Source: a virus (lineage: Duplodnaviria; Heunggongvirae; Uroviricota; Caudoviricetes). Taken from it: a stretch of 64,000 nt of DNA. The DNA lies in IMG/VR virus record IMGVR_UViG_2897328257_000003; one strand, written 5' to 3'. The stretch's first letter is position 1, and each line of letters begins with the position of its first letter. The notes under the pieces are model-generated. The model ran no database searches. It was not told the origin of the DNA and saw only the letters and a list, made by a program, of their open reading frames with translations. Shown here piece after piece: positions 44,953 to 45,754 of the stretch. Position numbers and translations under genes: made by a program.

Positions 44953-45153
44953 ATGAGAAATCATACCACACACCCGCAAGGGCGGGACTCGCACAACCTG
45001 AATAAATTCACCTGGCGCTTTATGCAGTGCCTGACAGACAGCATTGCAATATTCACCGTTACCGCTGCCACTGAGCGCGAAGCACGCGCACAGCTGCCGC
45101 ACGCACATCTTATTTTTGTCGCCCGTATTCGTCAGGGGGTGTGCCGTGCTTAA
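44953..45153 (+). CDS. Hypothetical small protein (first gene of the replication-side operon)
   Basis: ATG at 44953 with SD gaggta; homolog in island 2 (56560-56763) with conserved N-terminus MRNH.THPQGRDSHNLNKFTWRF and divergent C-terminus. The six-frame ORF starts at 44857, inside the palindrome. Confidence 0.5.
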   Translation: MRNHTTHPQGRDSHNLNKFTWRFMQCLTDSIAIFTVTAATEREARAQLPHAHLIFVARIRQGVCRA

Positions 45154-45331
45154 AACCTTCCGTGTATTTGCCAGCGCTGTTAACCCACTAGGCCACACAA
45201 TTGGTATCGCTCAGAATGTGAAGGCTGTTAATGTTCAGACGGCTATTGCTGCGGTGAGAAGCGAATCATCAGAATATGGCTTATCACAAGTCATTATTTC
45301 AGCAGTGTATGAATTAAAAGAGGTGCATTAA
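45146..45331 (+). CDS. Hypothetical small protein (61 aa), translationally coupled
   Basis: GTG start with SD gggggtg; stop overlaps the next start (TAATG). No recognisable family. Confidence 0.35.
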   Translation: MLKTFRVFASAVNPLGHTIGIAQNVKAVNVQTAIAAVRSESSEYGLSQVIISAVYELKEVH

Positions 45332-45522
45332 TGAAGGAAATTACATTACACGAAGCCGCTGAACGTGCGCACCAGACAGAAATTATTTGCCGACTTCTTG
45401 AGGTGTACCCTAATAAATTAAATGATGGTGATATATCCGCATTAGCTGGCCTTCTGGCAAAACTTTCTGGAAGTGTTGCGCTGTGGTTAATTGATGAGAG
45501 AGCCGAACGCTATGAAAAATAA
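45331..45522 (+). CDS. Hypothetical protein (63 aa), island-1-specific
   Basis: Six-frame ORF; in the variable slot between the conserved first ORF and the GLTASG-motif ORF. Confidence 0.45.
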   Translation: MKEITLHEAAERAHQTEIICRLLEVYPNKLNDGDISALAGLLAKLSGSVALWLIDERAERYEK

Positions 45523-45754
45523 TAAACTGGCGACCAGTGAATTAAGAAGCCTTGCCAACAGCGCAATATCTTTAAACAACGCAGCAAACGAAGTAATGAA
45601 CATGTGGCTTCAGTCGCTGGTGAATAATGAACGCGATGAATCAACCGCAAGATTAATATTAGCCGTTTCTGAATTACTGGATAGTTCAACCAGCAAAATA
45701 GAGAGCATATCAGAGAAGATTAACGGCTTATCAGGTCACGCTATCGGAGAATAA
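45512..45754 (+). CDS. Hypothetical protein (80 aa), island-1-specific
   Basis: Start refined to MKNNKL, overlapping the previous stop; no recognisable family. Confidence 0.45.
   Translation: MKNNKLATSELRSLANSAISLNNAANEVMNMWLQSLVNNERDESTARLILAVSELLDSSTSKIESISEKINGLSGHAIGE

Follow-up and report, generated by a model that had tools for sequence, protein, structure and literature searches.

In phage P1, the immI operon is made of the c4 RNA, icd, and ant, with icd as its first gene and with downstream genes that are translationally coupled to it. In lambdoid phages, the nin- and ea-type regions hold runs of dispensable small open reading frames (ORFs), which are present or absent among relatives and whose boundaries fall at gene junctions. 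Among phage satellites, helper-phage induction and transfer have been reported in the literature for EcCIEDL933, an island of the O157 lineage, and, in EcCICFT073, the regulator AlpA is switched on by the helper phage and activates the downstream genes of this phage-inducible chromosomal island (PICI) (PMC6092414). Here, we analyzed a 64,000-nucleotide (nt) stretch of Caudoviricetes DNA (IMG/VR record IMGVR_UViG_2897328257_000003), called the window below, and more precisely three small genes of its first satellite, island 1. These genes, ORF1, ORF2, and ORF3 (45146-45754), fill a slot between an Icd-like gene and a gene of the DUF4222 family. A sequence-only reading had called them island-specific and pointed out that, in satellites, variable slots of this kind often carry helper-interference, anti-defence, or defence cargo. 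We lean towards the view, somewhat likelier to be right than wrong, that ORF1–3 are optional accessory micro-proteins of the satellite early operon, which would bind other proteins of the induced cell.

The coordinates and overlaps of the three small coupled ORFs were confirmed from the sequence. All lie on the plus strand: ORF1 (45146..45331) starts with GTG and encodes 61 amino acids (aa) with an isoelectric point (pI) of 8.2; ORF2 (45331..45522) encodes 63 aa (pI 5.2); and ORF3 (45512..45754) encodes 80 aa (pI 5.05). The GTG of ORF1 (45146) overlaps the stop codon of the Icd-like gene (45151-45153) by 8 nt, the junction between ORF1 and ORF2 is a TAATG (45329-45333) with a 1-nt overlap, and ORF3 overlaps ORF2 by 11 nt when its start is placed at the ATG in 45512, as in the annotation of its homologues, rather than at the upstream TTG in 45491. 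From the ORF3 stop (45754) to the DUF4222 start (45760), the gap is 5 nt, with a GGAG at 45746-45749. Full-length PHROG matches were obtained for ORF1 (phrog_3672, E=9e-46), ORF2 (phrog_1478, E=1e-34), ORF3 (phrog_5796, E=8e-53), and p106, the slot gene of island 2 (see below), with E-values from 1e-34 to 1e-71 and with all four families annotated as "unknown function". Conservation of the coding sequence in related islands, which the sequence-only reading had made a point to check, is clear: gene lengths are unchanged in homologues down to 56% aa identity, and the ratio of non-synonymous to synonymous substitution rates (dN/dS) ranges from 0.07 to 0.47 for the slot genes (0.12-0.20 for ORF1), i.e., purifying selection. 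The exact slot proteins are also found in public contigs, in numbers from hundreds to >1,000, where their annotation is always "hypothetical protein". Because of these full-length matches, kept lengths, low dN/dS, and exact copies in many contigs, ORF1–3 are considered real genes. It is barely credible that they are only translated spacers, with functionless products, by which ribosomes leaving the Icd-like gene would reach those of DUF4222 and the primase. The tight coupling of the junctions and a cassette number that goes from 1 to 6 without obvious loss of the island type would suit such spacers, but dN/dS values well below 1, kept lengths, surface residues conserved within the families of ORF2 and ORF3, and confident folds all speak for products that matter.

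The way in which these genes are joined is the first argument for an operon. In the window, from the Icd-like gene to the primase gene, every junction is a 1-11 nt overlap or a 5-nt gap, and each ribosome-binding site (RBS) lies inside the end of the preceding gene. Indeed, the 3′ end of the Icd-like gene, which is the first gene of the operon and the left anchor of the slot, includes the RBS and the start codon of ORF1. Among 102 unique junctions from related loci, the genes are separated by 10 nt or less, or overlap by 20 nt or less, at 94, and a Shine-Dalgarno-like pentamer is present at 80. One junction recurs (AGGRGG, then 5-8 nt, ATG, and the upstream stop 5-8 nt later; window 45128-45153, loci L001-L160), and 34 of the 102 have an overlap of exactly 8 nt, of the form CC-ATG-CNT-RA after AGGRGG. 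It is common to unrelated families: upstream proteins end with His-Ala or Tyr-Ala because they share the junction sequence, and downstream proteins start with Met-Leu, Met-His, Met-Arg, or Met-Pro. This organization shows translational coupling. Moreover, a consensus scan found no plus-strand terminator within the slot and a single weak promoter-like site there (9 of 12), such sites being at chance level over the whole scanned region. ORF1–3 are thus internal genes of an early operon, which runs from the Icd-like gene to the primase gene, and beyond chance level none of them has its own promoter or terminator.

From this position, and by analogy with the PICI literature, expression of the slot genes would be confined to the induced island, where it would accompany that of the Icd-like, RgdR (the DUF4222 protein of island 1), and primase genes. 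The operon would be switched on by AlpA after helper induction, so that ORF1–3 would be made then only, and in fixed coupling with the replication genes. The same 20-25 nt junction may also provide a short homology for cassette exchange, and cassettes would possibly be swapped by this way. A bolder version, which we hold for distinctly unlikely, is a recombinase-free cassette system in which the junction ensures both coupling and crossover, each cassette neutralizes a different host or helper factor (e.g., an immune sensor, a protease, or a protein involved in division or replication), and the ORF3/p106 position is tied to the RgdR-type regulator. If true, the slot would constitute a compact unexplored library of satellite-specific inhibitors.

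To compare the slot across related islands, as the sequence-only reading had advised, we surveyed 157 IMG/VR loci, found via the two DUF4222 proteins of the window, and three annotated genome loci. A profile of the two aligned DUF4222 proteins run against genome contigs gave one locus, and the survey was therefore made on the IMG/VR loci. Slots were delimited by the Icd-like and DUF4222 matches, and trimmed non-overlapping genes were clustered with a coverage filter. This yielded 154 slots, 78 from the RgdR lineage and 76 from a second DUF4222 lineage. In the RgdR lineage, the slot is mosaic, with 25 architectures in the 78 loci, a length of 225-1860 bp (median 686), and 1-6 genes. The content is a closed set of about ten families (45-155 aa), whose order is mostly fixed: ORF1, F8, or F12 families first, then the ORF2 family, F2, F6, F3, and the ORF3 family. 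The latter is present in 75 of the 78 loci, always in the last position, adjoining the DUF4222 gene, and is divided into four subtypes, which share only 15-27% identity with the window ORF3. The ORF1-ORF2-ORF3 architecture of the window was found in five other loci. In the second lineage, p106 is alone in the slot in 75 of the 76 loci. Over the 154 slots, the sole large insert is an IS110-type transposase gene on the minus strand (L012, 1333-2528). The slot is thus variable, as had been proposed, in the RgdR lineage, but not at the near-constant ORF3 position nor in the second lineage, and its repertoire is mosaic yet closed, with no open turnover of cargo. A toxin-antitoxin pair was also considered and rejected, the ORF1 and ORF2 families each occurring without the other (ORF1 family without ORF2 family in L011, ORF2 family without ORF1 in many loci).

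Exchange can also be seen at a larger scale. Strain MFDS1006657 (L165, NZ_CP073589.1) carries the same capsid-forming PICI (cf-PICI) at the same site, but its slot holds one gene and its early module is divergent. Over the int-alpA part and the packaging module, the two islands are at least 99% identical, whereas in the comparison of window 44836-49098 with L165 the stretch from the Icd-like gene to the PerC gene is 86% identical or unalignable. The early/replication module has been exchanged as a block. In addition, the same ORF1–3 cassette is joined to a DUF927 primase in Sakai and L001 and to a D5_N primase in the window and L002. A second Icd-like gene, encoding about 155 aa with an N-terminal extension, is located before or inside the slot in some loci (L020, L043, L051, and L085, as family F10; L001, 3198-3647), and the C-terminal half of its product matches the C-terminal half of the island 1 Icd-like protein.

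What could such proteins do? ORF1–3 and p106 have no Pfam, NCBIfam, or PADLOC match, and sequence searches of the PDB gave nothing below E=0.2. AlphaFold2 predicts ORF3 as a long helical hairpin (helices 2-37 and 43-78, mean confidence score pLDDT 89.9) and ORF2 as a helical hairpin as well (helices 6-25 and 32-61, pLDDT 88.3). Foldseek searches of the models against PDB and BFVD returned generic hairpins only, with best E-values of 0.41 and 0.34 for ORF3 and 1.8 for ORF2; fold relatives of ORF2 and ORF3 in these two databases were rejected for this reason (generic helical hairpins, E >0.3). Hence, the remote-homology and structure check proposed in the sequence-only reading delivered confident hairpin models for ORF2 and ORF3, but no informative homologue or fold match. 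Most of the families in the slot have an acidic pI (median 4.8-5.1); those in first position are neutral to basic, and RgdR has a pI of 10.1. The acidic hairpins ORF2 and ORF3, which display no catalytic features, would bind and modulate other proteins of the induced cell, and the other cassettes would probably do likewise. The slot is an array of optional cassettes from about ten families, in a mostly fixed order and with the ORF3 family as the near-constant last member. Its products would serve accessory or "takeover" functions early on and be dispensable, in the manner of small genes in temperate-phage early regions, and would not be autonomous defence cargo.

Several points weigh against this proposal. 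The fold searches give only generic hairpins (E >0.3). The promoter of the operon and its dependence on AlpA are carried over from the work on EcCICFT073, the region upstream of the operon being masked in the window. Recombination could be driven by the junctions, but translational coupling alone would conserve them. Lastly, protein binding would fit anti-defence or helper interference equally well, and so does not discriminate the accessory reading from these rivals.

Anti-defence is, in our opinion, unlikely. According to it, the cassettes would inhibit host immune systems and thereby protect the replicating island, the helper, or both. Small, mostly acidic, mosaic proteins, expressed early and placed between conserved anchors, are what one would expect, the architecture resembles that of known anti-defence operons, and alleles diverge fast (ORF1 alleles are 56% identical, with conserved surrounding junctions). 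But the PDB sequence and fold searches revealed no similarity to solved anti-defence proteins, the families are few and form a closed set, the proteins are only mildly acidic in net charge, unlike DNA mimics, and an adjacent aca-like regulator is absent. Furthermore, expression would require AlpA and a helper phage, and not the entry into a new cell.

The strict adjacency of the last slot gene and the DUF4222 gene raises another question. The right anchor of the slot (45760..46059, plus strand, PF13973 E=1e-23) encodes a 99-aa protein with a pI of 10.1. This gene, described in the sequence-only reading by a GLTASG motif, belongs to the RgdR family: its product is 95% identical to ECs1581, with five substitutions, and keeps the RGD motif at residues 20-22. 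Three of the residues of this variant, A10, R45, and D61, are shared with the inactive ED1a variant, yet R20 is kept. In O157, RgdR activates the enterocyte effacement locus (LEE) and type III secretion and represses motility; its binding to DNA is non-specific, and a role as cofactor was proposed for it (PMC3378721). The ORF3 family, or p106, could then be a partner, a chaperone, or an antagonist of DUF4222/RgdR or of the primase. This is a rather doubtful alternative to the accessory reading. On its side stand the adjacency itself, the exclusive pairing of the ORF3 family with the RgdR-type DUF4222 and of p106 with the other type, the contrast between an acidic protein (pI around 5) and its basic neighbor (pI around 10), and the proposed cofactor role of RgdR with its non-specific DNA binding (PMC3378721). 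Nevertheless, DUF4222 proteins that are at least 88% identical pair with ORF3 subtypes only 15-27% identical to the window ORF3, the same ORF1–3 cassette is found with two primase types, and plain genetic linkage could explain the association.

These proteins are not restricted to the window. ORF1, ORF2, and ORF3 are 100, 98, and 100% identical to ECs1578, ECs1579, and ECs1580 of the Sp7 element of O157:H7 Sakai, whose counterparts in EDL933 are Z1840, an unannotated ORF, and Z1841 (PMC1890555, PMC3378721). In Sakai Sp7 and EDL933 OI-51 (CP-933C), the gene order, the overlaps, the flanks (Icd-like and RgdR ECs1581), and the site downstream of roxA/ycfD are the same; the differences are the primase, of D5_N type in the window and of DUF927 type in Sakai, and the GTG start of the window ORF1. 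Among 5,426 complete E. coli genomes, the three-gene cassette (at least 80% query coverage) is present in 147, p106 in 474, and a match to the Icd-like/DUF4222 region in 1,621. The description of these genes as island-specific therefore does not hold, since they occur at 98-100% identity in Sakai and recur in 147 (cassette) and 474 (p106) of the 5,426 genomes. ORF1–3 are already catalogued hypothetical proteins of a known satellite type rather than new ones, and in the literature searched we found no paper that assigns a function to them. They thus concern a sizeable share of E. coli genomes, including O157 with OI-51, whose deletion lowers type III secretion and colonization through the neighboring rgdR. 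Using a cloned z1835-z1843 fragment, Flockhart and colleagues mapped the type III secretion activity to rgdR, and not to the counterparts of ORF1–3 (PMC3378721).

The families differ in their distribution. The ORF3 family comprises 728 clusters at 90% identity, and the named matches among the 120 best listed are all from Escherichia or Shigella; the ORF2 family comprises 96 clusters, from Escherichia, Shigella, Citrobacter, Salmonella, Klebsiella, and Serratia; and ORF1 is rare, with 6 representative clusters among 1.84 billion proteins. In Klebsiella and Serratia (L161-L164), the ORF2 homologues are carried by another satellite type, with an operon made of AlpA, AntA, a short DUF4222, Ash, small ORFs, and a DUF927 primase; this layout resembles that of the published EcCIMP1. 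The ORF2 family is thus spread over satellites of Enterobacterales. A homologue is also found in seven genomes of Klebsiella phages, which are temperate, and, in the one examined, it lies in the early region beside the repressor. A DNA search of 50,697 phage genomes and of plasmids gave no match to the slot region, and a protein search with ORF3 in the same 50,697 phage genomes gave none either. The ORF1, ORF3, and p106 families are specific to satellites.

The identity with Sp7 also bears on helper interference, i.e., small proteins that would block or redirect helper functions. Small interference proteins are common in satellites (Ppi, Rpp), and a variable content could track the helpers. 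But an absence of interference with the helper was reported for EcCIEDL933, whose Sakai counterpart Sp7 encodes ORF1 and ORF3 in identical form and ORF2 with 98% identity; in addition, the slot genes are part of a replication-proximal early operon, outside the packaging module. We consider this reading very unlikely.

The readable sequence of the window spans 36270-64000, with N at 1-36269, 43242-43252, 44213-44835, and 56434-56444. On the left, island 1 is preceded by the E. coli chromosomal genes potB, potA, pepT, and roxA/ycfD, and its site, from roxA (ycfD) to phoQ, is common to O157 OI-51/CP-933C/Sp7, that is EcCIEDL933. Its gene order is as follows: integrase, AlpA, a masked stretch, Icd-like, ORF1–3, DUF4222, a D5_N-type primase, SSB, PerC, and a complete HK97-type capsid and packaging module closed by the end of TerL (55724). 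As in PICIs, the integrase (41912-43162), the AlpA-family regulator located upstream of the slot-bearing operon (43684..43872, plus strand, PF05930 E=5e-18), and the primase-replicase are all transcribed in the same direction and identified by Pfam. The latter (46056..47804, plus strand) has D5_N, DUF5906, and Pox_D5 domains, and its start overlaps the DUF4222 stop (ATGA). As in cf-PICIs, the island encodes its own HK97-type capsid, protease, portal, connectors, HNH, TerS, and TerL (ORFs 49338-55724), with capsid and TerL supported by Pfam and with no tail or lysis genes in this module, which is 99.6% identical to the annotated module of strain MFDS1006657. By its gene content, island 1 has the architecture of a cf-PICI of the EcCIEDL933 type. 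A PerC-family protein is also encoded there (48823-49095, Pfam E=2e-44), from the family of the Pch regulators, and a closely similar ORF is found at the corresponding position of island 2 (60027-60395).

The Icd-like gene of island 1 (44953..45153, plus strand) encodes a 66-aa protein with a pI of 11.2, which matches NCBIfam NF033153 with 54 bits (cut-off 25) and phrog_6196. Just upstream of its start, the RNA fold of 44836-44960 has a z-score of -3.1, with a stem-loop at 44883..44917 (plus strand). In L001 (3974-4008), a stem with a different sequence occupies the same position and is followed by conserved ACCACCAACGATA..GTATCGAGGTAGCTATG. A role of this leader stem-loop in regulation or processing is conceivable. 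We also looked, ahead of the Icd-like gene, for a C4-like or other known RNA, and rejected this possibility: Rfam gave no match at gathering score in the window, whose upstream region is masked, nor in L001 or L002, C4-type RNA was not found, and the matches obtained in L001 at E up to 1 are only at chance level. The masked stretch itself (44213..44835, 623 N) corresponds, in homologous islands, to an interval with at least one small minus-strand gene of the YlcI/YnfO family and a divergent promoter region.

Island 2 contains the second slot of the window. It is bordered by an Icd-like gene (56560..56763, plus strand, NF033153 70 bits with a cut-off of 25) and a DUF4222 gene (57083..57382, plus strand), whose product is 31% identical to the island 1 copy and has no RGD motif. 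In between, p106 (56756..57076, plus strand; 106 aa, pI 4.5; phrog_15327 E=2e-71) overlaps the Icd-like gene by 8 nt. The slot thus holds one unrelated 106-aa ORF at the place where the sequence-only reading had put it. A remote homology between p106 and ORF3 was considered, on the basis of a BLASTP match at E=0.03 and a W..NE.DE-like patch, and was rejected: the profile-profile comparison showed no kinship, this pair does not appear among the 20 best ones, and 18 of these 20 have a probability below 2%.

The two islands are near-identical in the leader and the N-terminal half of the Icd-like gene (44838-45030 vs 56445-56637) and then diverge in the middle of the gene, which marks a recombination breakpoint inside it. 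This near-identical stretch is also the likely cause of contig breaks. A perfect 136-bp duplication (43106-43388) surrounds the N run at 43242-43252 (11 N). The homologous complete genome (L165) does not have it, and it looks like overlapping contig ends joined with Ns. The right end of island 1 (56020-56433) continues into phoQ in complete genomes, and the junction between islands 1 and 2 (11-N gap, 56434-56444) was found in 0 of the 5,426 complete genomes. Here, island 2 is the middle of another PICI, without int or alpA, and islands with an identical p106 are found at the pntB-mdtJ or cspD sites, where they have an int and an alpA of their own. The tandem is thus probably a scaffolding artefact, although one public record of 5.32 Mb, in which the protein accessions of ORF2 and p106 are 17 apart, probably has the same layout. 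Such an artefact would leave the comparison of the two slots unaffected.

How does this locus compare with the systems already described? The P2/P4 antiviral hotspots of Rousset et al. (PMC9122126) are, like the slot, small loci whose content turns over between conserved genes, a likeness that is seen in the RgdR lineage and not in the second one. In this formal sense, the slot would be a hotspot, and its genes could be defence cargo, i.e., an abortive-infection or toxin-antitoxin system for the benefit of the host. We find this highly improbable. The P4 hotspots have an average length of about 2.6 kb, lie beside cos, and contain recognizable defence systems (PMC9122126), whereas the slot has a median of 0.69 kb (686 bp), lies beside the primase gene, and contains only micro-proteins. 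No recognizable defence content was found there (no PADLOC, Pfam, or NCBIfam match, and an IS110-type transposase as the sole large insert); the products of 61-80 aa have no enzymatic domain, the genes have no promoter of their own, and there are no obligate gene pairs, since the ORF1 and ORF2 families are found one without the other. Moreover, the cf-PICI literature expects immune systems on either side of the packaging module. More generally, the cargo reading, whether helper interference, anti-defence, or defence, found no support, given the absence of Pfam, NCBIfam, and PADLOC matches, the closed repertoire, and the lack of an own promoter. Since the slot is a coupled early-operon array and not a free-standing cargo hotspot, effects after island induction, binding partners, and polar effects on RgdR and the primase are more promising to look at than constitutive defence.

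In the cf-PICI comparison of EcCIGN02175 with KpCIDSM30104, the authors point to one gene at the same general position, with no function assigned (bioRxiv 10.1101/2025.02.11.637232). This remark concerns one gene; the literature searched contained no description of the cassette families reported here, of their order, or of the junction motif. The right flank of the slot corresponds to the RgdR/DUF4222 family, with a PF13973 match, about 99 aa, and RGD at residues 20-22, a motif that the island 2 copy does not have. With the lambdoid-type mosaic regions, the difference is that ORF1, ORF3, and p106 have no DNA match in the 50,697 phage genomes, and ORF3 no protein match there either; the likeness is the presence of ORF2 homologues in the early region of temperate Klebsiella phages. 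With respect to the P1 immI operon, no C4-type RNA is seen in the unmasked homologous loci and ORF1–3 have no Ant/AntA Pfam match, but the likeness is found in the organization itself: both operons begin with a gene of the Icd family (NF033153, 54 and 70 bits in islands 1 and 2, for a cut-off of 25), followed by coupled downstream genes.

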